Assembly (NCBI GenBank): GCA_963662465.1
Contig: OY759599.1
Coordinates: 4,032,001-4,096,000 of the forward strand
Length of the DNA stretch: 64,000 nucleotides
Origin: Desulfatiglandales bacterium
GTDB lineage: Bacteria; Desulfobacterota; DSM-4660; Desulfatiglandales; Desulfatiglandaceae
Direction: 5' to 3'
Part shown: piece by piece, positions 35,940-54,583 of the stretch
Layout: every line of letters starts with the position of its first letter
Numbering within the stretch: the first letter of the stretch is position 1
Position numbers and translations under genes: made by a program
Notes under the pieces: generated by a model
The model's input: the letters and a program-made list of their open reading frames with translations, nothing else
The model's database searches: none
Told to the model about the DNA's origin: nothing

Positions 35940-36091
35940 CTGTGATGGCAAAGTCCTTGAGAAACAGTGCAAATACACAGATAGAAGTGTCTTTTTCAGC
36001 AACTTACGGTATACTATAAGATCCTAAAAAGAGAAAGATTTGGTTCGACTCGGTGAATGTAATTATAATCAGAAGTAAAGGAAAACAAAGA

Positions 36092-37276
36092 ATGAAAATC
36101 ACACAATTGGATATTGAGGGTTTCCGCTCTCTTCGAAATGTAAGCTGGTTTCCTGGTGATCTCAACGTGATTATCGGTCCTAACGGGACTGGCAAATCAA
36201 ATTTGTTACGATTAATGGAATTAATTTCCGTATCAGCACAGGGTAAACTCGGCAAATATATTCAATCGTTGGGTGGAATGGATCCGATTGTTTGGGACGG
36301 CACAGCTACTTCGATAAAGTTTGCCCTTGAGTCAATCCCTGAAGGAGGAGAGCTAGGTCCTGAACACTACGAGCTTGAACTAGCAAGGCTCGGGGCTGGA
36401 AGTTCATATAAAGTTGAAAAGGAACTTTTGATCAACTCTCATAAATTAAGGAAAAATATTGAAAAAAAACCATTTAAATTTCTAGAAAGATTCTCAAGGA
36501 CAGCTGTTATTTTTGATGAAACGGAACATACCTTTACTACTCCTGAAGAGTTTGTTTCAGAGGAGGAAAGTCTTCTTTCAATAGCATCAGGGCCATTTGT
36601 CAATAATCACTACATTCCACCTTTTCAACGGGAATTGGCATCTATTGCTGTTTATCATGATTTGCATACCAATAAGGACGCCTCTGTTCGTCAACCTGCT
36701 ATCTCTCGAATGGAAAAACGAGTTGATCCTGATGGACAAAATCTCATATCGGTTATGCATACGCTTTACACAGGTGATCGTGATTTTAAAAAAGATATAA
36801 ATTCTGCCATGCGAGCAGCATTTGGTGATGATTTTGAAGAGTTGGTTTTTCCTCCTGCGTCTGACCAGAGGATTCAAATGAGAGTTCGCTGGAGATCACT
36901 AAAGCGTGAGCAATCAGCTGCTGAGCTTTCAGACGGAACACTACGTTTTTTATTTTTGTTAACGGTGCTGGCAAGCCCATCACCGGCTCCAATTATCGCG
37001 ATCGATGAACCAGAGACAGGGCTGCATCCATCAATGTTGCCTTTGGTTGCGGAGTATGCAGTTGACGCAGCCACTAGATCTCAAGTTATTCTGACGACGC
37101 ATTCCCCACAATTCTTGGATGCTTTCGGTGGAACTCAGCCTACAACCACTGTTGCAACCTGGGAAAATGGTGAAACTTTATTAAAAACGCTAAAAGGAGA
37201 AAACCTTGACTACTGGCTGAACGAATACTCTCTGGGGGCTCTTTTTAAATCTGGAGAATTGGAGCAGATGATATGA
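36092..37276 (+). CDS. ABC/AAA_21-type ATPase (cassette-borne)
   Basis: 'GPNGTGKSN', 'LSDGT', 'IDEPETGLHP', 'TTHSP'. Confidence 0.9.
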   Translation: MKITQLDIEGFRSLRNVSWFPGDLNVIIGPNGTGKSNLLRLMELISVSAQGKLGKYIQSLGGMDPIVWDGTATSIKFALESIPEGGELGPEHYELELARLGAGSSYKVEKELLINSHKLRKNIEKKPFKFLERFSRTAVIFDETEHTFTTPEEFVSEEESLLSIASGPFVNNHYIPPFQRELASIAVYHDLHTNKDASVRQPAISRMEKRVDPDGQNLISVMHTLYTGDRDFKKDINSAMRAAFGDDFEELVFPPASDQRIQMRVRWRSLKREQSAAELSDGTLRFLFLLTVLASPSPAPIIAIDEPETGLHPSMLPLVAEYAVDAATRSQVILTTHSPQFLDAFGGTQPTTTVATWENGETLLKTLKGENLDYWLNEYSLGALFKSGELEQMI

Positions 37277-37902
37277 GATTTGTTTTTTTTGTGGAAGGCT
37301 ATACTGAAAATAAGTCGCTACCTAAATTTTTAAAAAAATGGCTTGATCCAAGATTAGATAATCCTGTCGGGATTCGAACTATCCGATTTGAAGGATGGTC
37401 TGAACTAGTAAAAGACGCTCCTCGAAAAGCAAAAATGCATCTGAATGGGCCAGATAAAGGCGATATTATTGCCGTGATTTCTTTGTTGGATCTTTACGGC
37501 CCGACCTTTTATCCGAATCATATTGAAAACTACGATGAGCGTTATGAGTGGGGGAAAAAATATATTGAAGACAAGGTAAATCATTCACGTTTTTTTCAAT
37601 TTTTTGCAGTTCATGAAGTTGAGGCATGGCTTCTGAGTCAACCAGATATCTTCCCTCTTAAAGTCAAAAATGCATTCCCCCCAAAGATTCAAAATCCGGA
37701 ATTGGTAAACTTTAATGAACCGCCGGCAAAATTATTGGAACGTCTTTATCGTTTGCATGTAAAAAGATCATATAAAAAAGTCGTGAACGGGAAAGAACTT
37801 TTCGATAAACTCGATCCGAATATCGCATATCACAAATGTCCAAAATTTAAAGAGCTTCTGGATAAAATGTTAGAGTTAGCCCAACCAGACGCTACACATT
37901 GA
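37273..37902 (+). CDS. DUF4276-like (TOPRIM-like) partner of the ATPase
   Basis: 'FFVEGYTE', 'LLDLYG', 'HEVEAWLL', 'YKKV', 'CPKF'; ATGA overlap. Confidence 0.8.
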   Translation: MRFVFFVEGYTENKSLPKFLKKWLDPRLDNPVGIRTIRFEGWSELVKDAPRKAKMHLNGPDKGDIIAVISLLDLYGPTFYPNHIENYDERYEWGKKYIEDKVNHSRFFQFFAVHEVEAWLLSQPDIFPLKVKNAFPPKIQNPELVNFNEPPAKLLERLYRLHVKRSYKKVVNGKELFDKLDPNIAYHKCPKFKELLDKMLELAQPDATH

Positions 37903-38003: not shown

Positions 38004-38095
38004 CATCACACGAATAGATGCAACTCACAGGTCTCGTTTAGCCTTTCGGGGTGAAAGCAGTCCTTGACAAATTCCACTGCTAAAATGGAGGTACG

Positions 38096-39265
38096 ATGAC
38101 GTCGCCAATTAAAGACAAGTATGCTATCGTTGGAGTGGGATACACGCCCCAGGGCCGTGTCCCTGGAAGAACATCTCTCAGTTTCCATTTGGAGGCGTCA
38201 GCCAATGCCATCAAAGATGCCGGCCTGAATAAAGACGATGTGGACGGTTTCATCTGTTACCGCCACTTTCCCGCCGCTTCGGATGAGGACGACCTGACGC
38301 CCCAATTTATCGCTCAGCAACTCGGGATTTCCCCCGCCTACGTCAGCCAGGACGGCAACTGATCGCGAAATCACCTTCAGCACGCAGTTGGCGCGCTCGA
38401 ACTTGGTTTATGCCGTTACGTTCTTATCTCCTATGGTCACAATGCCCTTTCCAGCGACAGCATGTTTCAGATGCTTATGACATTATCAGGCGATGATGCC
38501 GTCTTCGGCCATTTTGGCGCCACCGGCGGTTATGCGCTCGCTGCCAGAAGGGCCATGCACCAATTCGGCACTGGACCTGAAACCTGGAAACAGATTGCCG
38601 TTGGGCAGCGAAAGTGGGCCAACCTCAACCCGGCCGCCATGATGCATGACAAGCTCATGACCGAAGCGGATTACGACAACGCAAGGTGGGTTGTCGAGCC
38701 GCTACGCCTGCCTGACAACTGCCTGATTAATGATGGCGGCCGCGCTATTATCGTCACCTCCCTTGAGCGGGCACGCGACCTGAAACAGCCTCCGGCAGTA
38801 ATAATGGGGATGGGGATGCACAATCCCTCGACGGTCATTGCTCAGTCCGACTGGATGGCTGGGCCCAGCGGCGCCAAACAGGCCGGAGAGGCAGCTTTTA
38901 AAATGGCGGACATCACCCTGAATGATGTGGATGCATGCCAGACCTATGACTGTTTTACCTACACTGTGGAACTCACTCTCCAGGACTATGGTTTTTTTAA
39001 ACCCGGCGAAGGGCGCGATTGGTTCCAGGGCGGAACGATTGAACCCGGCGGCAGGATGCCGGTGAATACTTCAGGCGGGCAGCTTTCGGAAGCCTACTTC
39101 ATGGGTCTGACGCCCATCGCCGAAAGCGCTGTGCAGCTTATGGGCCGGTGCGGGAAACGACAGCTCGGCCCCGCCACCCGGACCAAAGCGCCTGAGATTA
39201 TAATGTGTAGTGACAATGGTGGTATTTTGCAGAGTCACGCATGCATCCTGCTAAGGAGGTTGTAA
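38096..39265 (+). CDS. Thiolase-fold (SCP2-thiolase/Ltp2-like) protein, 389 aa, with in-frame TGA at codon 89 (candidate selenocysteine)
   Basis: ORFs 38096-38362 and 38462-39265 share a frame joined by 33 sense codons: 'QDGN-U-SRNHLQHAVGALELGLCRYVLISYG'; 'YDCF', 'GGQLSEAY'. Confidence 0.85.
38376..38401 (+). promoter_or_regulatory. Candidate bacterial SECIS hairpin
   Basis: TTCAGCACGC-AGTTG-GCGCGCTCGAA; loop starts 24 nt after TGA with G at loop position 2. Confidence 0.55.
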
Positions 39266-39267
39266 CG

Positions 39268-39687
39268 ATGCCATACGAAAAACCATTGCCAAAACTCAAT
39301 GGCGACAACACCCCCTTTTGGGAGGGGTGTCGCCGGCATGAACTCAGATTTCAGCAATGCAACGATTGTGGCCACGTCAGATGGCCGCCGTCCGATCTTT
39401 GCCCCCAGTGCCATTCCACTGAAATCAACTGGTTGATTTCCAAGGGGATCGGCAGGGTATACACATTTGCTGTCTACCACACCGCATTCCATTCGGGATT
39501 CGCAACCGACGTGCCATATACTGTGGCCGTCGTGGCGCTCGATGAGGGACCCCACCTTCTAACCAATATTGTCGACTGCCGACCCGATGAGGTGAGATGC
39601 GACATGCCGGTAGGGGTATTTTGGGAGGATGTCGACGAAAGAATAACACTGCCGAAATTCAAGCCATTATCGTGTGTCCGGGCATAA
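39268..39687 (+). CDS. DUF35 Zn-ribbon/OB-fold protein
   Basis: 'PFWEG', 'CNDCG', 'CPQC', 'GRVYTF', 'LDEGP'; AAGGAGGT RBS. Confidence 0.92.
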   Translation: MPYEKPLPKLNGDNTPFWEGCRRHELRFQQCNDCGHVRWPPSDLCPQCHSTEINWLISKGIGRVYTFAVYHTAFHSGFATDVPYTVAVVALDEGPHLLTNIVDCRPDEVRCDMPVGVFWEDVDERITLPKFKPLSCVRA

Positions 39688-39807
39688 AGCGACGATTGGC
39701 CGTACCCTGCCTGCTTAATTGCATAAAAAAAGAGGGCTAAGGGAACTTCCCTTCATATTCATGCGTTGGTCGTGAAGCACCAGGATGCGACCCCATTGCA
39801 TTTTTCC

Positions 39808-39840
39808 TTGACATGTTATTCCAAAATAGAATATTTCCAT
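39808..39840 (+). promoter_or_regulatory. Sigma70-type promoter with 17-bp palindromic operator
   Basis: TTGACA (39808-39813) then TATTCCAAAATAGAATA (39817-39833). Confidence 0.65.
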
Positions 39841-39897
39841 TTAGACTATTTTATCATACCGCAGTCGAGACCCGGTGATATTGAAAGGAGCAGCGAA

Positions 39898-42138
39898 ATG
39901 AAACGGATATTGTGGATGAGCATCTTGATGGGGTTTGCTATTTTTCCCGAACCGGTTTTTTCGGGAGAGGATATTACCGCCTTGCCTGACGTTGTCGTAG
40001 AAGGCAAATTCGCGGAACAGGATTTTGTGGGACCCGTGTTTACGGAAACCAACACCAAAACAAAAATCACGGAAAAAGGGATAAACGCCCTCGGTCCCGG
40101 CTCAAAAATGTCCGTGCCAAGAGCCATAAGTCTTATTCCATCCGTGAATCAGCAGAGCGTTGATCCAAATGGTCTTGCGGATATCAGCAATTATCACGAA
40201 TCTTTCAGGTTCAGGGGGATTGAACCCACCGGTGGCGGAAACCCCTCCACCCCAGTTAATGTGGAGAATATCCCGGTTACCGGAAGACCTGGGGGCGGCG
40301 GAAACATCTATGATCTGGAAAATTTTGGAAGCATATCCATTTATAAGGGAGGCGTTCCAGCCGATAAGGCATTCGGATTGACGAATATCGGCGGAAAAAT
40401 TGATATGGCGGTAAAAAAACCCAAGGGAGAATTCGGTTTCGATTTGAAGCAGGCCTTGGGAAGTCATGACTTCAGAAGGACTTTTTTGCGTCTTGATACG
40501 GGATTGTTTTCCACCGAAACCGCGGGTTTCCTGTCATATTCCAACACCAACGCCGACAAATGGAAGGGCGAAGGGGATTCCAATCGAAATAATGCAATGC
40601 TCGGTTTGACTCAGAAAGTCGGCGACGGATTAAAAATAGAAGCATTCTCCATCTACAACAACGCAAAGATCAATCCCTACAGACCGCTTAATTATAAAGA
40701 GGCGTCATCGCTAAGCAAGAATTACAATTTTGATTATACGGATAATAGTGCCGACTATTTCTATTATGGTTACAATAAAAGTGATTTTGAAGATTATAAT
40801 ATTTTTGCAAATATTGAATATAAGTTTAATAAAAATTCCAGCATAATGGTGAAGCCGTTTTATTGGAAAGATGATGGCTATTATCTGGAAACCATCACAA
40901 TGAAAAACGGAAAAAACCGGATCAGACGATGGGACATAGACCATGAGTTGAGCGGCGTTTTAAGCCAATATTCATTGAAAATTCAATCAGCGGACTTTAA
41001 TGTGGGCTATTTTTATCTTGAGCAGGAAAGACCCGGACCGCCCACCTCATGGAAATTGTATAAGGTATCGTCCGGCAATCTTGATTTCGACAAATGGCAG
41101 GTCCTTTCCAATTCTTCAAAGCACCGTCAACATGTTCCTTTTGTATCAGGGAAATATTCAATAGGGCCCTTCAATATTGAAGGCGGCATCAAATATCTGA
41201 GATATTCAATGCCGGACATCACCACATACGACACAACCGGCATCCCGGATGTCAGCTATGAAGACGCCCTCGGCATGGTGACCGGCACTGAAGCGGATGC
41301 AAGTGCCAATTCAAAAGATTTCAATGAAATTCTTCCCAATTTCGGTTTGAATTACAGGATAAACGATGAATTGAATGGCTATTTTTCATATGGCAGAAAT
41401 TATGGCATGAGTGTGGCCCTTTACCCCTATTTTATCTCGCAAAAAAGTGCTTTCTATAAAAAAGGCATCACGCTGCAGGATCTCTGGAATAAACAGGAAC
41501 TCGAAATTGCGGACAATTTTGATGTGGGGTTGCGATACATCACGGACAACCTGTATGTGGCGCCCACCCTTTATTATGCCAAACACAAAAATAAGACCGC
41601 ACCTTATTACGACGCCTCCATCGAGGCCACCTTCCCCGCCGCGGTTTTTGATGCGGATGCATACGGTTTCGAATTGGAGGCAGGCGTTATGCCTTTGGAA
41701 AATCTGTCTCTCTATGGATCCTTTTCCTACAACAGATTCTGTTTTTCCCAAGATATTTATGATCAGGCGGGCGCCGCTATTTCAGTAAAGGGCAACCAGG
41801 TGCCTGATGCCCCGGAATTTCTGGCGAAAGGCATCGCAAGTTACAGCATCGGATATTTTACCTTTTCTCCCGTTGTGAGATATACCTCCAGCAGATATGG
41901 CGACATTTTGCATGAAGAAAAAATTGACGGCGCAACGCTCTTTGATTTCGATATTACCTATACAACAGCCTTTCCAAAGATTAAGATTCAAAAACTGGAT
42001 CTTTCCCTTGCTTTTAATAATATATTTGATAAAGAATACATTAGCATTATCAATACCGCTGATTATAAGACCCTTGGGTCATCCTATCAGACAGGTGCGC
42101 CGTTTAATGTTTTCTTCTCTGTTTCGGCTTCTTTTTAA
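39898..42138 (+). CDS. TonB-dependent receptor 1
   Basis: Signal peptide, TonB box 'PDVVVEG', plug, beta-barrel, 'NIFDKEY', terminal F. Confidence 0.92.
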   Translation: MKRILWMSILMGFAIFPEPVFSGEDITALPDVVVEGKFAEQDFVGPVFTETNTKTKITEKGINALGPGSKMSVPRAISLIPSVNQQSVDPNGLADISNYHESFRFRGIEPTGGGNPSTPVNVENIPVTGRPGGGGNIYDLENFGSISIYKGGVPADKAFGLTNIGGKIDMAVKKPKGEFGFDLKQALGSHDFRRTFLRLDTGLFSTETAGFLSYSNTNADKWKGEGDSNRNNAMLGLTQKVGDGLKIEAFSIYNNAKINPYRPLNYKEASSLSKNYNFDYTDNSADYFYYGYNKSDFEDYNIFANIEYKFNKNSSIMVKPFYWKDDGYYLETITMKNGKNRIRRWDIDHELSGVLSQYSLKIQSADFNVGYFYLEQERPGPPTSWKLYKVSSGNLDFDKWQVLSNSSKHRQHVPFVSGKYSIGPFNIEGGIKYLRYSMPDITTYDTTGIPDVSYEDALGMVTGTEADASANSKDFNEILPNFGLNYRINDELNGYFSYGRNYGMSVALYPYFISQKSAFYKKGITLQDLWNKQELEIADNFDVGLRYITDNLYVAPTLYYAKHKNKTAPYYDASIEATFPAAVFDADAYGFELEAGVMPLENLSLYGSFSYNRFCFSQDIYDQAGAAISVKGNQVPDAPEFLAKGIASYSIGYFTFSPVVRYTSSRYGDILHEEKIDGATLFDFDITYTTAFPKIKIQKLDLSLAFNNIFDKEYISIINTADYKTLGSSYQTGAPFNVFFSVSASF

Positions 42139-42250
42139 ATTTACGCCTTGTCTTTATAACGCATGGCATTAAGAGAGGTCGGCCTAATGGTTTCCCTCAG
42201 CTCTTGAAGCATGCGGGTTTTCCGGCCGCTGCAAGCGGTAAGGAGTCATA

Positions 42251-43078
42251 TTGATGTTTTGTTTTGGTCGTTTTTTTTGGTTTTCATGCCTTTTTGGGGT
42301 TATACCCGCTTTGATATTCTTCCCTTGCGGAGCCGGCTGTGAATCGGAGATGCCGCCCACGGCCCTACAAGTCAAGCAGAATGCCGAAGCATCCGTGAAA
42401 ATCCGTCGTATGAGTCAGAAACGCATCGATGCATGGGCGGATGAAGAAGAAAAAATGCGTTCAGAAATTTCGAGTCTTGAGAAAGATCTAGATACGCTCA
42501 AGTGGAGACGGCAAAAGACCGACACGTATCTCCTGGATCTGGAACAAAAAATGGCGGCTTTAAATGAAGGAAGCCGTGCGGCTAAAGAGATTCAGGATGA
42601 ATTGGAACCTTTTCTGGAAAAAACCCTTCAGGATCTGGAAGCGTTTTCCGAAAATGAATTGCCGTCCCTGAGGGAACTTCAAAGCCCCGGTCTTCAATCG
42701 GCCAAGGAAATGCAAAATGATGCGGATGCCGATATGGTCCGGAAAACCCGCGGCCTGCTGGAGGTTCTCATGCGGGCCGTGGAATACGGATATTTCGTGG
42801 AACCGGACCAGACCGATATCGGTATCGATGAAAAGACCATTCGCGTCAAACGCATCAGCGTAGGACGATTGGGGCTCTTTGCCCTGAGCGCCGACGGAGA
42901 TCAAGCCTGGAAATGGCAGACTGAGAAAGAGCAATATGAACCGATTCCCCATTTTGCCGGCGCCATTCGGGAAGCCATCCAGATTTGTGAACGAAGGCGT
43001 TTGGTGGAATTGGTGAAATTGCCCATGGGACCCCCTGTCAGCCCCCCCGTTAGCTCTGACAAGGAGGTGAAAAAGTGA
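42251..43078 (+). CDS. DUF3450-family periplasmic coiled-coil protein (copy 1)
   Basis: Coiled coil, 'EYG', 'VGRLGLFALSADG'; position in TonB operon. Confidence 0.8.
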   Translation: MMFCFGRFFWFSCLFGVIPALIFFPCGAGCESEMPPTALQVKQNAEASVKIRRMSQKRIDAWADEEEKMRSEISSLEKDLDTLKWRRQKTDTYLLDLEQKMAALNEGSRAAKEIQDELEPFLEKTLQDLEAFSENELPSLRELQSPGLQSAKEMQNDADADMVRKTRGLLEVLMRAVEYGYFVEPDQTDIGIDEKTIRVKRISVGRLGLFALSADGDQAWKWQTEKEQYEPIPHFAGAIREAIQICERRRLVELVKLPMGPPVSPPVSSDKEVKK

Positions 43079-44478
43079 GGGTTTTGCTCTGTCTGGTTTT
43101 TTTATTCACCTTCCCGCCATTGCTTTTTGCCCAATCGTCCTCATTCAGCCGGGTGGCCCAAGAGGTAGAGACGGATTTGAAAAAGGCGCAGGCGGAAGAA
43201 ACCCTCACCCTGGCCGATGTGGCCGAGAAACGCAAAGAACTCATGACCCGGCGGGATCGCCTGATATCTGATATCAAAAGGGAAAGCGAAGCCCTTGCAG
43301 CTGACGAACTGCGGCTTTCGGAAATGCGGAAAAAGCGGCTGGAACTGATCCGTATGGTTCAGACCCACGCGGGCCGCATGAAAGAGCTGGATGCGGCCAT
43401 ACGGGATTTTGCTCGTAATTTCTATGGTTTAGCTGAGCGTTCCGCCTATAGTGCTGAAACGCCCGACCGGTTGACGATTCTCAAGCATTTCCTGGATAAA
43501 AACAAAATTCTCGGGATTCAGGATATTCAAACCCTGGTGGCATTGGCTTTTAAGGATATGACGGCATCAGGGCAGATCATCCGGCGTGAAGGGGGAATGG
43601 TGGATCGTCGGGGAGAAACGGTCCAGGGGGCGATTATCCGCATGGGCAATCTTACCGCCATCTACCGGAGCGGGGGAGATGTGGGGTACCTCAGCCCGAG
43701 TCCCGCTTCAGGGAGGCTTTTGGTTTCCGCTCCCCCCGGATGGGGTGTTTGCCGGAATCTGAAACAGTATTTTGAAGGGGAAACCGATGACGTCTATATG
43801 GATATCTCGGGGGGCGCAGCCATCAAACAGATGGCGCGTAAAGCCACCTTATGGGAGCAGATTCAGAGCGGCGGCGTGTTGGTATGGCCTATCCTGCTGG
43901 TGGGGTTGGTGGCCGTCATTCTGGTGCTTGAACGGCTTATCTTCCTGGGTCGGGTGCGGCACAACACCGACAAACTCATGACCCATGTGACGGAGCTGGT
44001 GGAAGCGGGCGATTACCGGGGCGCCATGAAGGAAACCGAGTCCCTGTCCGGCATGCCCACCAGCAATGTTTTAAAGGCCGGGCTTACCCAGCAGGGTCAG
44101 CCCCGGGACATCATTGAAAGCAGTCTGGCCGAGGCCATCCTCAAGGAAACCCCGCGTCTGGAACGATTTCTGCCCGCCCTCAAGGTGCTGGCGGCCATTG
44201 CGCCCCTTCTGGGGTTGCTCGGGACCGTGACCGGCATGATCAACACCTTTCAGGTGATTACCGTTCATGGGACCGGCGACCCGCGCCTTATGGCCGGCGG
44301 GATCAGCGAAGCCCTCATCACCACCCAGCTGGGTCTGGCCGTGGCCATTCCCATACTGGTGATCGCGGCCCTCCTGGGACGAAAAGTGAACCGCATTGCC
44401 TCGGATATGGAGGAAAAAGCCATGGCCCTGATCGCGGCCCTTTTAAGAGATCAGAGGGTTTCCTATGAACTGTCTTGA
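43075..44478 (+). CDS. Large MotA/TolQ/ExbB protein (TtpC-like, copy 1)
   Basis: 'APLLGLLGTVTGMI', 'MAGGISEALITT' after long periplasmic domain. Confidence 0.88.
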   Translation: MRVLLCLVFLFTFPPLLFAQSSSFSRVAQEVETDLKKAQAEETLTLADVAEKRKELMTRRDRLISDIKRESEALAADELRLSEMRKKRLELIRMVQTHAGRMKELDAAIRDFARNFYGLAERSAYSAETPDRLTILKHFLDKNKILGIQDIQTLVALAFKDMTASGQIIRREGGMVDRRGETVQGAIIRMGNLTAIYRSGGDVGYLSPSPASGRLLVSAPPGWGVCRNLKQYFEGETDDVYMDISGGAAIKQMARKATLWEQIQSGGVLVWPILLVGLVAVILVLERLIFLGRVRHNTDKLMTHVTELVEAGDYRGAMKETESLSGMPTSNVLKAGLTQQGQPRDIIESSLAEAILKETPRLERFLPALKVLAAIAPLLGLLGTVTGMINTFQVITVHGTGDPRLMAGGISEALITTQLGLAVAIPILVIAALLGRKVNRIASDMEEKAMALIAALLRDQRVSYELS

Positions 44479-45079
44479 AACCATGTGGCGCTTTGTTCAA
44501 ACGGGTGGACCCATCATGATCCCATTGGTGCTGATTTCCATCTGGATGTGGTATTTGATTGTTCAAAAGCTGCTGTGGATATTCCGTATTCGCCGCTATC
44601 CCCTGAAAATATCCGAGGCCCTTAACGTCATGGCAGCCCCCCCCAAACAGTTGGGAGGGCATGACACTCCCAGGTCCGGGGCCCTCAACTATTTTCTGGG
44701 GCAGCGGCGTTTCAACCCGGAGCCCGATCGGATTATGTGGGAAGTGGCAGTCAAGCGCCAGCTTTTCCCCCTCAACCGGCACATGGCCGCCATTCTGGTG
44801 CTGGCCACGGTGGCGCCCCTTTTGGGATTGCTGGGGACGGTGACGGGTATGGTGGATACCTTCAGGGTGATTGGCGTTCAAGGGGCAAGCAATCCCCAGG
44901 CCCTTGCCTCGGGGATCAAGGAAGCCCTGATTACCACGCAGACCGGACTGCTGATCGCCATTCCCGGTCTTCTGGCCGGGCAGACCCTGCGTAAGATGAT
45001 CCGCAACATTCAGGGGGATCTCATGATATTTTACCGGGCCGTGGACCAATGGCTGGAAAGGAATACGCCCCATGTTTAG
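44465..45079 (+). CDS. exbB: ExbB (copy 1)
   Basis: 'APLLGLLGTVTGMV', 'GIKEALITT'. Confidence 0.88.
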   Translation: MNCLETMWRFVQTGGPIMIPLVLISIWMWYLIVQKLLWIFRIRRYPLKISEALNVMAAPPKQLGGHDTPRSGALNYFLGQRRFNPEPDRIMWEVAVKRQLFPLNRHMAAILVLATVAPLLGLLGTVTGMVDTFRVIGVQGASNPQALASGIKEALITTQTGLLIAIPGLLAGQTLRKMIRNIQGDLMIFYRAVDQWLERNTPHV

Positions 45080-45503
45080 AATCGGCAGCAGTCTTGGCGG
45101 CAACCGGGGGCTGGACGGCAGTGAAGACGCCGAACTCAACATGGCGCCCCTCATCGATATGATTTTTATCCTTTTGATTTTTTTCCTGGTCACCGCCACC
45201 TTTGTGAAGGAATCCGGGGTGGAGATCCAAAGGCCCGAAGCCGCATCGGCCCAGGACAAACCGGAGGCCGGACTTTTCATCGGCATCACCGAACAGGGGG
45301 AAATCTTCATTGACAAAACGCGGGTGGATTTAAGGAGCGTTCGCGGCATGGTGGAACATTTTTTGTTGGAAACCCCTTCGGGAGGCGTGATCCTTGAAGC
45401 CGACCGTTCCAGTCTCACGGGACGCCTCGTGGCGGTCCTGGATCAATGCCGAATGGCGGGGGCCGAAAATATCGCCGTATCCACCCTCAGGAGCGAACCG
45501 TGA
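45072..45503 (+). CDS. exbD: ExbD (copy 1)
   Basis: 'LNMAPLIDMIFILLIFFLVT'. Confidence 0.92.
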   Translation: MFRIGSSLGGNRGLDGSEDAELNMAPLIDMIFILLIFFLVTATFVKESGVEIQRPEAASAQDKPEAGLFIGITEQGEIFIDKTRVDLRSVRGMVEHFLLETPSGGVILEADRSSLTGRLVAVLDQCRMAGAENIAVSTLRSEP

Positions 45504-46330
45504 GAACAGGGCCGGCAATGGTTTTTTCCAGCCGGAAAAAGCACGGTTATGGCCTTTTGGCCTTCCTTCTGTCGCTTCTCATCAATGTCGTTATTTTCGC
45601 CATTGCCCCCATGCTCCTGGAACAGACCGGCGTGACGGACTTTTTGCCCCATGCCCTTCTGAATTTGAAAATGCCCCTGCGGTCGGAACAACCGGGATCT
45701 GAGTCAGAGCAAGACATTGAGATGAGGGATGAAAATCCCCAACCGGCACCCATGGAACCGGAATTGGAAATCGATTCACCGGACGTACCGGAGATGTTGC
45801 CCCCCGAACTTGAAATCCCCCCACTGACATCTCCCCAGGATTCTTTTGATGAGCCTGCCCCTGAAATATCCCGGTTGGAAATTCCCCTCAAGACCGTGTC
45901 CATGAAATCCGTACCCGTGGCCTTGTCCGCGCCCGCTGCCGCCCCGGCATCCTCACCCCCCCCGGCATCCGCGCCACAACCGGCTGCGCGGTCAAACCCG
46001 CAACCCGTCAAGGAACATAAAAAAAACGGCGGTTATTCCCTGGGCCAGGTGGATGCGGCGCCGAGGGCCATGTATCAGGCGCTCCCTCGCTATCCGCGCC
46101 GCGCCAGACAACGAAACATCGAGGGATGGGTGAAAGTCCGTTTTCTGGTGGATAAAGAGGGGCGGGTTCGGAACCTTCGAATACTGGAAGAATCCCCGCC
46201 GGACGTTTTTCATGAAACCGTCATGGAAACAGCGCCCCGGTGGCGCTTTCGCCCGGCCACAAAGGAAGGACGTCCCGTGAACGTCTGGGTGGAACAAACC
46301 ATTAATTTCAGGATGGACGACGCATGGTAA
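45500..46330 (+). CDS. tonB: TonB (copy 1)
   Basis: TM anchor, Pro-rich linker, 'PRYPRRAR..IEGWVKVRFLVD', 'WRFRPA'. Confidence 0.9.
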   Translation: MRTGPAMVFSSRKKHGYGLLAFLLSLLINVVIFAIAPMLLEQTGVTDFLPHALLNLKMPLRSEQPGSESEQDIEMRDENPQPAPMEPELEIDSPDVPEMLPPELEIPPLTSPQDSFDEPAPEISRLEIPLKTVSMKSVPVALSAPAAAPASSPPPASAPQPAARSNPQPVKEHKKNGGYSLGQVDAAPRAMYQALPRYPRRARQRNIEGWVKVRFLVDKEGRVRNLRILEESPPDVFHETVMETAPRWRFRPATKEGRPVNVWVEQTINFRMDDAW

Positions 46331-47937
46331 ACCGGAAACGCACCTTTCTGATTGTCTTTATGCTGGTGTTTCCATGGGGCGGCAGCCTTTTCGGCGGACA
46401 ATGCCCCCAGGAGATGCCCCCCATGAACCCGGACCTTCACAAGTGCATGGTCCAGGCTGAAAAACTGATGGACCGGGGCCGGAACACGGAAGCCCTGACC
46501 CTGTTGGATTGTTATGCTCGGGAAAACCCTTCTGAAAAACATCCTCATCCGGTTTTTGTCAGGGGGCTTTTGAATTACCGGCTCAAACGGCTGAAAAAAG
46601 CAGAGGCCCTTTTCAAAACCGCCGTAGACCGTAACCCTTGCTTCGTCGAAGCCTGGCAAAACCTGGCGGTGGTGTATCATGACCAAAAACGACCGGCCCG
46701 GGCCGCAAAATCAATGGAACGGGTGCTGGCCCTGTCAAAGGATGAACAGCCGAGTTTGAAATACCAGGCCGCCCTGTGCTGGCTGGCGGCGGACAAACCC
46801 GGAAAAGCCCTTCCCCTGCTTCAGGCCTTATCCCGAAAGAAACCGCCTCGTCCTGAATGGTTGACCCGCCTGGCGGAAGCCCAAAAAGCCCTTGGGCAGC
46901 CGAAAAACGCTGCCATGACCCTTGAAAAAGCCTACCGCAACGACCATGATCCTGAACGCCTTTACCAGGCGGCCCTGCTTGATTTGAAGGCGAAAGCGCC
47001 GGATAAAGCCCTGCCTTCTTTGAAGAAACTGGCGGCAAGCCCCCACCCTGACGCTAAATGGATCATTCTTCTAGCGCTGACCTTAGACCAGCTGGACCAC
47101 TGTTCCGAGGCCATGGAGATCATGGAAAGAACAGAGGTTAACGCCCCGTCCCTGCCGGCTGAAATGCGCTTTCAGGTGGGGATCTTCTGGTTGAAGCATG
47201 AGCGTCCCAAACAGGCCCTGCCCTGGCTTGAAGCCGTTTTTAAGGATCCCAATCCCCCTGAAGGCGCCCGCCGGGCTTATATCCGGGCACTGGTCTTGGC
47301 CGGAAAACCCCATCAGGCCGACCCCTTGCTTAGCGCCCTGTTAAAAAAAGATCCGGAGGACCATGGCATCTGGCGTCTTGCCGCATGGATTTATATGGAA
47401 CAGAAGGATTATCCCCGTGCGGCCGCCGCCCTCCACGTGGCCTATCGTCTTAATCCTCCGAACCCCGGCGAGTGGAAACGCCTGGGAGACCTGTATCGGC
47501 TTTCCGGCGTTCCCATGAAGGCCGTCGACGCTTACGAAAAAGCCTTTGGTCCATCGCCGGGAGCAAGGGACCTGGATTTGCTGGCTGAAACCTATATCGC
47601 AGCGAACCGGATGGAAAAGGCCCTTGCCGCGGCAGAGCGTGCCGTACGTTTGAAACCCACGGCGAAACGCTGGGCCAGACTGGGAGACCTCTGCCTGAAA
47701 TGCAGGGAGTGCCGCAAGGCAAAATCCGCCTTTCAACAGGCAGCGAGAATTGACGACAGGGGTGGGCTAATGAGCTTAAAGGAAGGATACGCCGCCTGGC
47801 AGATGCAGGAAATGTCATGTGCGAAAAATGCCTTTCAGAAGGCGCTTCAGCACGCGGAACCGAAAAGCGACACGGCTCTGAAAGCGTCCCATGCACTGGC
47901 GGCTATCCGGAAAATCACGGATGCGGCAAAAAATTGA
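46324..47937 (+). CDS. Exported TPR protein (copy 1)
   Basis: Signal peptide, repeated helical TPR units. Confidence 0.85.
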   Translation: MVNRKRTFLIVFMLVFPWGGSLFGGQCPQEMPPMNPDLHKCMVQAEKLMDRGRNTEALTLLDCYARENPSEKHPHPVFVRGLLNYRLKRLKKAEALFKTAVDRNPCFVEAWQNLAVVYHDQKRPARAAKSMERVLALSKDEQPSLKYQAALCWLAADKPGKALPLLQALSRKKPPRPEWLTRLAEAQKALGQPKNAAMTLEKAYRNDHDPERLYQAALLDLKAKAPDKALPSLKKLAASPHPDAKWIILLALTLDQLDHCSEAMEIMERTEVNAPSLPAEMRFQVGIFWLKHERPKQALPWLEAVFKDPNPPEGARRAYIRALVLAGKPHQADPLLSALLKKDPEDHGIWRLAAWIYMEQKDYPRAAAALHVAYRLNPPNPGEWKRLGDLYRLSGVPMKAVDAYEKAFGPSPGARDLDLLAETYIAANRMEKALAAAERAVRLKPTAKRWARLGDLCLKCRECRKAKSAFQQAARIDDRGGLMSLKEGYAAWQMQEMSCAKNAFQKALQHAEPKSDTALKASHALAAIRKITDAAKN

Positions 47938-52471: not shown

Positions 52472-54583
52472 ATGAAAAAGTATTCAAAATGGGGTCATGG
52501 GACCTTTATGTTCCTGGGTCTCTGGGTCGTGATGGTTTTTCTGCTGGGGGCGTCGGTTTGCCCGAGTGATGCGGAAGAGCCGGAAGACAAGAAGGCAATC
52601 GCCCAAACGGGAGAAAAAAAGGCAGGCGCCGGAAAGGCCGTGCAACTGGAAGATGTGACGGTGATGGCGGCGCAACCGGGCGTTGAAATTACGCCGGATA
52701 AAACCGTCATTCGAATGGATGAGTTCGTTAAACCGGGAGATGTGCGAACCCTTACGGACGTGTTGAAAACCATGGGGGGCATCGACGTTATGCGCGTTAA
52801 TCCCATGATGGCCAGTCCGGGAGATGAAGTGTCCATTCGCGGCATGAACGAAGGCCGTCTGGTGGTGGAAATCGACGGCAGGAGAATCAACCACAGCGGC
52901 TACTATGGAAGGTATATCGTGGACTGGTCAACGCTGAACATGGACGATGTCGAAAAAGTTGAAATCATCCGGGGTGGTCATTCGGTGCTGCATCCCTTTG
53001 CCATCGGCGGCGTGATCAACATCATCACCAAAAAGGGCAAAAAAACCGATGATCCCAAGCCCAATGTGCGCGCCAAGGCGGGTGTGGGGGCCTTCACCAC
53101 CACCACGGAATCCCTTTCCATTGACGGCGGGGCATTCAATGTGGTGGGCTATGATTTTTCAGTGAACAATGGTTCCACCAACGGTTACTTGCGGAACAAC
53201 TACCAGGACAGCACCACGCTCAATGGACATTTAAGTTTCTTTATGCCCATGGACGCAGTGCTGGAACTGGGGGTCAAGCATGCGGATGTAAATTACGGAT
53301 TTCCAGTGGTAAACGACCCCTCCCGGGCCGATTACGATGCCGGCTCTCCCAACTTTTATGCCAATGCCGACCAGCTCAGGCATCTGAACTGGCCCCAGTA
53401 TGCGGAAAATGATCCCAGTTGGAAAAAACATACCACCTACCTCGACGGCATATTCCGCATGCCCGCGGGGCCCGGGACCATCAATATTCACGGATACCTC
53501 ACCAATGGCAGGCGCTGGACCAGCCTCTACAATAAAATGGGTGTTCTTGAACCCGATGTGTTCATGGATGACCGCACCGAGGGGGTTATCGCGGAGTACC
53601 GGGATATCGATTTATTCGGATTCAACAAGGTGACCGTGGGGTATGAATATCAACTCCTGGGCGCCCCCAGTGAAATTTCGGACCTGTTCCGGGTTAGCTC
53701 CGGGTACATCCAGGACGTGATCACCATAGGGGATCAATGGCGCCTCACACCGGGGGTTCGTTATTACCATGTGGATATGAACACTTACTACTCCCAGTTC
53801 GGCAAAGGATGGCCCGTAGCCGGCAATACGGAGACGGATGAGGGGTTTTATCCCAGCCTGAGGGCCGACTTTCAAGCCACCGATGAAACCGCCCTTTATG
53901 CGGCGGTGAGCCGGTCCTATCGGCTGCCGTGTCCTTGAGACTACTACTGGTGGGCGCGGTGCGCGTCCGAGGAGAATCCCACGTTAAAACCGGAATCGGC
54001 CTGGGAATACGAGTTGGGCCTGATTCAGGATATGGATCCCATTAATTTGAGAGCCGCCATATACTACTATGACATCAAAAACTTCATCAACGACAACGGC
54101 ATTACGTCTCCCGGAACGGGCATCGGGAGCAACTGCCTTTACAACATTCCCCACTTCAAACTCTGGGGCGGTGAAATCGAGACGAGCCTTCGCTTGGGCC
54201 GGTTCCAGGGGACCCTTTCCTACAACTATCAAAACTACAATGCGGACAATACCGGATTTGAGGCGGACTGGTCCTATTATCTTCCCGCGCTTCTGCCCCA
54301 GAACAAAGTCAAGTTTCTGGGCAATTACGAGGTCTGGAAAGGCGGGATGGTTCAGTTGAGCAGCATCTTCGTGGATGAACGAAAGACCCAGCAGCCGGGG
54401 GTGGACGATCTGGACAGCTACATCACCTTTGATGCGGGGTTTCAGCAGTCATTTCATTTCGCCGGCGTTAACTGGCGGGCCGAGACCTACTGTAACAACT
54501 TTACGGGGGCCAATTACCAGGAACAGGCGGGATACCGCATGCCCAAATATGTTTGGGGGTTTCTGTTGAGCGCCCGATTTTAA
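52472..54583 (+). CDS. TonB-dependent receptor 2, 703 aa, with in-frame TGA at codon 489 (candidate selenocysteine, C-P-U)
   Basis: ORFs 52472-53938 and 54014-54583 share a frame: 'SYRLPCP-U-DYYWWARCASEENPTLKPESAWEYELG'; TonB box 'EDVTVMA', plug 'VEIIRGGHSVL', terminal F. Confidence 0.88.
53952..53968 (+). promoter_or_regulatory. Candidate bacterial SECIS hairpin
   Basis: GGGCGCG-GTG-CGCGTCC; G-led loop about 20 nt after TGA. Confidence 0.65.

Follow-up and report, generated by a model that had tools for sequence, protein, structure and literature searches.

Enzymes of the thiolase fold that are partnered by a DUF35 protein include both aldolases and thiolases. The retro-aldolase TcLtp2-ChsH2(DUF35) of Thermomonospora curvata (6ok1) acts on the C3 side chain of steroids, and the aldolase CtSal-Shy(DUF35) of Comamonas testosteroni (9MYR) on the C5 side chain that bile acids carry. 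The DUF35-linked thiolases include the archaeal acetoacetyl-coenzyme A (CoA) thiolase (6esq, 7yvy) and the benzoylsuccinyl-CoA thiolase BbsAB (7pxp). Here we describe a related gene pair in a stretch of 64,000 nucleotides (nt) from a Desulfatiglandales bacterium (GCA_963662465.1, contig OY759599.1, positions 4,032,001 to 4,096,000 of the forward strand; referred to as the window), in which a thiolase-fold gene with an in-frame TGA at codon 89 is followed by a DUF35 gene. The UGA of residue 89 is, we predict with great confidence, a genuine selenocysteine (Sec) codon that is decoded with the aid of a hairpin, and the gene is intact.

The enzymology of the relatives was taken from PMC12329534. 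The catalytic pair of Ltp2 is Tyr294 (base) and Tyr344 (acid), and the catalytic residues of CtSal are Tyr302 and Cys304 of a YDCY motif (PMC12329534). The motif is HDCF in SCP2 thiolases and YDCF in SCP2-thiolase-like proteins; in SCP2 thiolases, the enolate receives its proton from the Cys of the HDCF loop, and the equivalent Cys is the proton donor in the aldolase CtSal as well (PMC12329534). Sal is incapable of thiolysis because it has no nucleophile, and in 9MYR a dimer of the thiolase fold binds two DUF35 domains (PMC12329534).

When the locus was set beside these systems, it was found to share the fold, the Tyr pair and the DUF35 partner with TcLtp2, which differs in having Ala at the column of residue 89, His (YDHF) at the place of C286 and a DUF35 domain that is the tail of a hydratase. 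CtSal shares Y-D-C and a zinc-finger DUF35, but its nucleophile is absent at the residue-89 column and Gln352 replaces Y334 (PMC12329534). SCP2-type thiolases (6hsj, 6hrv) carry a Cys in the xDCF loop, like C286 here (PMC12329534). The DUF35-linked thiolases have their nucleophile at the same column (CAS in 7yvy), and the small DUF35 subunit of the BbsA type is a free protein, like that of the window. Compared with both groups of thiolases, the window's protein has Sec, has Tyr for both His, and shows much lower similarity (6e-38 to 9e-27). The archaeal thiolase/HMG-CoA synthase/DUF35 complex was tried as a model and rejected, since no match to the C-terminal domain of HMG-CoA synthase (PF08540) was found in the complete genome. 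The prokaryotic selenoproteins in the catalogue PMC13188914 likewise have UGA at a catalytic Cys, orthologs in Cys form and a hairpin of the selenocysteine insertion sequence (SECIS) model, and the host of the window, a selenoprotein-using member of the Thermodesulfobacteriota, is in line with them.

An in-frame UGA at the nucleophile column

The thiolase-fold frame runs from the ATG at 38096 to the TAA at 39263-39265, its sole internal stop being the TGA at 38360-38362, and the read-through product has 389 residues, containing '...QDGN-U-SRNHLQHAVGALELGLC...'. Translation confirmed what the original prediction had seen here: an in-frame TGA with an intact frame on either side, YDCF (Y284), GGQLSEAY (Y334) and the 50-residue spacing between the two Tyr. 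The features of the pair, all on the forward strand, are as follows.

38087..38091 (+): ribosome-binding site GGAGG, 4 nt 5' of the thiolase-like ATG; read from the sequence
38096..39265 (+): thiolase-fold gene, 389 codons including one UGA (predicted Sec89); from translation, Pfam and homologs
38360..38362 (+): UGA codon of residue 89, at the thiolase nucleophile position; from homolog alignment and comparison of loci
38379..38397 (+): predicted SECIS hairpin, 5' arm AGCACGC, loop AGUUG, 3' arm GCGCGCU; from folding and conservation
38945..38956 (+): YDCF motif (Y284, D285, C286, F287); from alignment, invariant in 121 of 121 rows
39095..39097 (+): codon of Y334, at the end of 'GGQLSEAY', 50 residues after Y284; from alignment
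39254..39259 (+): ribosome-binding site AGGAGG of the DUF35 gene; read from the sequence
39268..39687 (+): DUF35 gene, 139 residues, rubredoxin-like zinc ribbon and OB fold; from Pfam

The read-through protein has 2404 relatives, of which the best 120 (65-87% identity, 382-407 residues) were aligned with it to give 121 rows. The TGA had been proposed to lie where thiolases carry their nucleophilic Cys. This was borne out by the alignment, in which the residue-89 column is Cys in all 120 of these best homologs and corresponds to the Cys of 'CAS' in the thiolase 7yvy.

Genome samples were then searched whole, with stops read through. An ortholog was found in 32 of the 209 genomes of the order sample (E ≤ 1e-100, own genome included), 16 with TGA and 16 with Cys and no stop, and in 11 of the 401 genomes of the phylum sample (E ≤ 1e-120, own genome included), eight with TGA and three with Cys and no stop. 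Five close relatives in named records, including a Desulfatiglandales metagenome-assembled genome (MAG) at 98% identity and Syntrophales/Syntrophus MAGs, all had one TGA, and none was without a stop. The pooled set comprised 44 orthologous loci, with TGA at the residue-89 codon in 27 and TGC or TGT in 17; L025 and L031 do not differ in sequence, and L055 and L056 are nearly alike, so that independent genomes are slightly fewer. The 27 TGA loci span 68-100% protein identity and several families of the phylum, each with a single stop and with both halves of the protein conserved. The TGA is kept in the 98%-identical genome (L025), and Cys forms are known at 83-87% identity to the window's protein.

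Contigs from separate runs gave the same picture. That of run X1 is identical to the window and spans both TGA and hairpin, that of run X3 has 13 differences in 781 nt, none of them listed at the TGA or the hairpin, and a 418-nt contig of the metatranscriptome run X8 (38276-38693) has eight differences and leaves both unchanged. Since independent contigs keep the TGA, an assembly error is ruled out.

The genome, a single contig of 8.16 Mb, contains tRNA-Sec along with SelB (382 bits; cut-off 242), SelA (614 bits; cut-off 268) and SelD (373.5 bits; cut-off 125), and selD itself carries an in-frame TGA. The original prediction had named three findings that would speak against it, namely no homolog with Cys at the TGA, close relatives with a sense codon one mutation away and no other TGA example, and no Sec machinery. 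Instead, Cys homologs, 26 other TGA loci and the Sec machinery were all found.

The hairpin consists of arms at 38379-38385 and 38391-38397 and the loop AGUUG at 38386-38390. Its loop starts 24 nt after the A of the TGA, exactly where it had been placed at first, and its stem contains one A-C mismatch, leaving six pairs over seven positions. According to PMC13188914, the bacterial SECIS model has a loop of 3-9 nt with G in the first two bases, a stem of 4-16 base pairs, 16-37 nt between UGA and loop, and an energy of -7.5 kcal/mol or below. The window hairpin falls within this model, with a 5-nt loop in which G is second and followed by U, a stem of seven positions, 23 nt from UGA to loop and an energy of -9.0 kcal/mol. 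Two other genes of this genome, selD and a TonB-receptor gene, have hairpins with small G-rich loops at similar distances after their UGA.

In the TGA forms, the element AGCACGC-AGUUG-GCG(U/C)GCU begins 16 nt after the UGA (20 nt from its U). The core GCACGC-N5-GCGYGC is exact in 25 of the 27 TGA loci and one base off in each of the other two (L036 and L037), and the hairpin occurs in one of the 17 Cys loci, L035. Synonymous variation was measured on a codon alignment of 19 distinct Sec and 13 Cys forms, as normalised entropy in segments of six codons. For the Sec forms, the entropy at codons +6 to +11 was 0.05, against a gene mean of 0.78 (standard deviation 0.12); this was the lowest of 268 segments, and the six lowest all overlap the hairpin segment. 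For the Cys forms, the same codons gave 0.78 against a mean of 0.76. The collapse of entropy is confined to TGA forms; constraint at the RNA level is thus limited to genes that have a UGA to decode.

A quick maximum-likelihood tree, unrooted, was built from 57 rows (19 Sec, 38 Cys), 25 of them database rows that came from full-length matches and are Cys by construction, which makes the proportions of Sec to Cys in it meaningless. The tree intersperses Sec and Cys forms; parsimony gives 11 changes, and the well-supported branches force at least six. One Cys form with TGT, L035 (G102:C94), retains the complete SECIS-type hairpin CAGCACGCAGTTGGCGTGCT, and in its relative L033 (TGC) the hairpin is partly decayed. 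Judged from these sequences, L035 looks like a recent switch from Sec to Cys with a fossil SECIS. The hairpin sequence is one and the same in all Sec forms and persists in L035, from which we infer that Sec was ancestral in the clade and was repeatedly exchanged for Cys.

Active site and predicted chemistry

The family profile was compared with solved structures. The best match was 4u4e ('Thiolase', 5.5e-80), with Gly at column 89, and the second was TcLtp2 (6ok1, 8e-63), with Ala. For CtSal (9myr, 8.5e-60) the residue at this column is Ser in our alignment and Gly according to PMC12329534. The true thiolases 7yvy, 6esq and 7pxp matched at 6e-38 to 5e-29, the Cys of column 89 being seen for 7yvy.

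Y284 aligns with the Y of 'YDHF' in Ltp2 and the H of 'HDAF' in 7yvy, Y334 with the Y of 'GEAY' in Ltp2 and the H of 'GHP' in 7yvy, and YDCF with the YDCY of CtSal. The predicted match of Y284 and Y334 with the catalytic Tyr pair of Ltp2, which has no Cys at the nucleophile column (Ala), is therefore seen in the alignment with 6ok1. None of the 121 rows departs from Y284, D285, C286, F287 or Y334, residue 89 is always Cys or Sec, and C106 is invariant alongside it. Both thiolase His, that of HDCF and that of the 'GHP' loop, are thus Tyr in every row, and the nucleophile column is filled, by Sec89 here and by Cys in the Cys forms. C286 of YDCF is a second invariant Cys, which the original prediction had overlooked. 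The hybrid active site put forward there is real at the level of sequence; it is, however, a property of the whole family, as the 120 Cys homologs share all of its residues. The 'unusual' cleavage that was suggested with it was less well borne out: both thiolase cysteines are present, and ordinary thiolase chemistry, with Tyr lining the oxyanion hole, is no less likely. The same bacterial family also contains L024 (G025:C273), a paralog-like relative with 39% identity that keeps YDCF and has Gly at the nucleophile column ('NIGGATPAAM'); it represents a Cys-less, aldolase-like branch.

Covalent catalysis of the thiolase type, by way of an acyl-selenoester, appears fairly probable for the window's enzyme, because the nucleophile column is never lost here though aldolase relatives lost it, because the cell pays for Sec insertion at this very column, and because the second thiolase Cys (C286) is invariant too. 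In such a reaction Sec89 would attack the 3-ketoacyl-CoA to give an acyl-selenoester, with C286 of YDCF as the acid/base that protonates the leaving enolate, and CoA would then release the acyl group. Y284 and Y334 would replace two oxyanion-hole/activating residues of ordinary thiolases, in which the His at the Y334 position activates the nucleophile. Sec is a nucleophile of low pKa that is ionised at neutral pH, and this may be an advantage where Tyr (Y334) replaces the activating His. The enzyme would bind the zinc-ribbon/OB protein of the DUF35 family encoded 2 nt downstream, in the manner of its solved relatives. In its full form, the reading is that the family uses an acyl-selenoester intermediate for the cleavage or formation of C-C bonds, with Sec as a non-redox nucleophile and Tyr in place of the His helpers, that Sec is ancestral and was swapped to Cys at least six times, and that the L035 hairpin is a fossil; we regard the chances of all of this holding together as evenly balanced.

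Several observations weigh against Sec decoding or against chemistry of the thiolase type. The nearest structural matches (4u4e, Ltp2 and Sal, the last two being aldolases) are those without Cys at column 89, and the true thiolases are further away. Tyr stands at both positions that line the oxyanion hole, which is also the arrangement in the aldolase Ltp2. The gene neighbourhood, in the window and in 20 other loci, offered no pathway clue to the substrate. At the RNA level, the 19-nt hairpin of the window folds with -6.9 kcal/mol, compared with -10.8 kcal/mol for the perfect form without the A-C mismatch. The fold of 86 nt of window sequence was not significant against shuffles (z = -0.41), and the 27-nt fold (-9.0 kcal/mol) gave z = -1.5, with 20 of 200 shuffles folding equally well. 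Folding of single sequences, being no better than chance, was dropped as evidence for a SECIS and replaced by the comparative analysis. No compensatory covariation was demonstrable in the stem, which is nearly invariant, and for this reason the RNA evidence consists of synonymous-site conservation only; the sole common change in the stem, U or C in the 3' arm, gives the A-C mismatch. The RNA-library contig of run X8 is a weak hint of transcription and not proof of it, because DNA can occur in such libraries.

The alternative that survives best keeps the Sec and assigns the enzyme to the Ltp2/Sal type, as a retro-aldolase that cleaves a 3-hydroxyacyl-CoA without a covalent acyl-enzyme. Y284 would then be the base and Y334 or C286 the acid, and residue 89 would have some other role, for example in shaping the oxyanion hole or in substrate binding. 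The nearest characterised relatives, Ltp2 (8e-63) and Sal (8.5e-60), are indeed aldolases, and both have a DUF35 partner. The invariant residues also fit, Y284/Y334 being the equivalents of Tyr294/Tyr344 in Ltp2 and Y284/C286 those of Tyr302/Cys304 in CtSal (catalytic residues as in PMC12329534). However, the characterised aldolases lost the Cys of residue 89, whereas Cys or Sec stands there in 121 proteins and at 44 loci, and the upkeep of costly Sec insertion, with a constrained SECIS, argues that residue 89 does chemistry. The Ltp2-type traits of YDHF and a missing nucleophile are not found here, where the motif is YDCF and residue 89 is Sec or Cys. Moreover, the DUF35 domain of Ltp2 and Sal is the tail of the MaoC hydratase that makes the aldolase substrate (PMC12329534 and PMC11321319), whereas the DUF35 protein here is a free protein of 139 residues, and a MaoC-domain gene stands beside only one of the 20 other loci examined, L023, which is a Cys form. 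On balance, we consider a retro-aldolase rather unlikely.

A second alternative, to which we give only a slim chance, is that the Sec is real and has a redox or regulatory role, for example by pairing with C286 or C106 in a selenenylsulfide, so that oxidation would shut the enzyme down, and does not serve as the acyl acceptor. Redox proteins make up most of the prokaryotic selenoproteins known (PMC13188914), and C106 and C286, too, are fixed in the alignment. But no UxxC or CxxU motif lies around residue 89, and this residue stands where enzymes of the fold, a non-redox one, canonically have their nucleophile.

A plain stop, be it in a newly arisen nonsense pseudogene, through a sequencing error or between the two products (88 and 267 residues) of a split gene, is already contradicted by the comparative data and has next to no chance of being right. 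In its favour, a single base separates TGA from TGC or TGT, there are Cys forms at 83-87% identity, and gene callers and public databases treat the relatives as truncated. But 27 loci share exactly one stop at exactly the residue-89 codon with both halves conserved, the RNA just 3' of the TGA is constrained in TGA forms only, the first start after the TGA varies (truncated open reading frames (ORFs) of 236-296 residues) with no conserved restart, and independent assemblies concur on the TGA.

Annotation and place among selenium enzymes

The annotation of the family was surveyed with the 267-residue ORF after the TGA as query. Among the best 120 clusters, 101 are 236-296 residues long, none of them starting upstream of '...LQHAVG', and 19 are full length (385-390 residues). 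The source names are 'thiolase family protein' or 'acetyl-CoA acetyltransferase'; one fragment entry, for instance, reads 'thiolase family protein [Desulfatitalea alkaliphila]'. With fragments in such a majority, the Sec form prevails among close relatives, where the databases enter it as a fragment. The family is thus widely mis-annotated in sulfate-reducing and syntrophic bacteria.

A selenium-containing thiolase of Clostridium kluyveri was reportedly described by Hartmanis and Stadtman in 1982, its selenium being said to be non-specifically incorporated selenomethionine. That enzyme also contains selenium, but reportedly has no UGA-encoded catalytic Sec. A 2019 review lists 'thiolase' among selenium enzymes (PMC6480557). 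Table 1 of a 2026 review, with 119 prokaryotic selenoprotein families and subfamilies, holds no thiolase fold in the accessible part of that source (PMC13188914). Neither 'thiolase' nor 'acetyltransferase' occurs in the accessible main texts of PMC13188914, PMC9312934, PMC1976440, PMC5029168, PMC1794560 and bioRxiv 10.1101/2022.07.06.499078. Selenium in an enzyme class that cleaves C-C bonds is likely an addition to the catalogue of PMC13188914, as judged from its accessible part. Full-text literature searches found no report of a Sec thiolase and no text with 'selenoester' and 'thiolase' together.

The great majority of known selenoproteins are redox enzymes. With a selenium nucleophile, an enzyme of the thiolase fold would be a new entry in the list of selenoproteins and not a new principle. 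If Sec does act as the acyl-accepting nucleophile of a thiolase, selenium biochemistry would be extended to C-C chemistry of the Claisen type, and the natural Sec/Cys enzyme pairs (83-87% identity) would allow the benefit of selenium in acyl transfer to be gauged. The active site, with both thiolase cysteines and the tyrosines of Ltp2, lies between the thiolases and the steroid aldolases, and this mixture bears on the evolution between the two.

The gene pair and its surroundings

The thiolase-fold protein passed the Pfam model Thiolase_C_1 (4.3e-37; 127.5 bits, cut-off 28). Its best NCBIfam match was PRK06158 (273.9 bits, below the cut-off of 421), and PRK07855 gave 231.4 bits (below the cut-off of 469); all 24 matches to NCBIfam thiolase/lipid-transfer models lie under their own cut-offs, and no family-specific NCBIfam model above cut-off was found for this protein. 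The DUF35 gene begins 2 nt past the stop of the thiolase-fold gene. Its product, predicted at the outset as the partner, has domains of the ChsH2 type in Pfam (zf-ChsH2, 2.8e-14; OB_ChsH2_C, 5.3e-19) and matches the NCBIfam model BbsA at 6.4e-08, far under the cut-off. At all 44 orthologous loci the thiolase-fold gene is followed directly, on the same strand and after a gap of 0-44 nt, by a DUF35 homolog. Three DUF35 genes occur in the genome, all of them next to a gene of the thiolase fold, and only the thiolase-fold gene of the window has a TGA. A scan of the operon for promoters and terminators returned nothing usable.

The pair stands alone, flanked by a defence-like pair and by TonB/ExbBD genes, and in the 20 other loci the DUF35 gene is the sole constant neighbour. 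An acyl-CoA dehydrogenase gene is nearby in two of these 20. In three Syntrophus-like Sec loci (L027, L028 and L029) the pair has a squalene-hopene cyclase gene as its immediate upstream neighbour, which may reflect the shared ancestry of close relatives and not a functional link. The Cys form L054 has an open frame of 909 residues that was considered as a fusion; this proved spurious, its upstream part encoding TrkH in another frame.

Just upstream of the pair, at 36053-37902 (+), are genes for an AAA_21 ATPase (407 residues) and a DUF4276 protein (209 residues), which correspond to HEC-01, a candidate defence system in PADLOC (HEC-01A, 1.7e-60; HEC-01B, 3.9e-15). In each of four runs, the contigs from related strains agree with the window from about 38013 on and are unlike the sequence before it; it seems that strains vary in the DNA upstream of the thiolase operon, the defence-like pair included. 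Positions 39766-47937 (+), directly 3' of the DUF35 gene, encode a TonB-dependent receptor, DUF3450, two ExbB-type proteins, ExbD, TonB and a TPR protein. These genes make up a complete cluster for TonB uptake that is not evidently linked to the thiolase pair. Further on, the ORF of a TonB-dependent receptor at 52472-53938 (+) ends at a TGA (53936-53938), and a GC-rich hairpin, GGGCGCG-GUG-CGCGUCC, lies 13 nt downstream of it.

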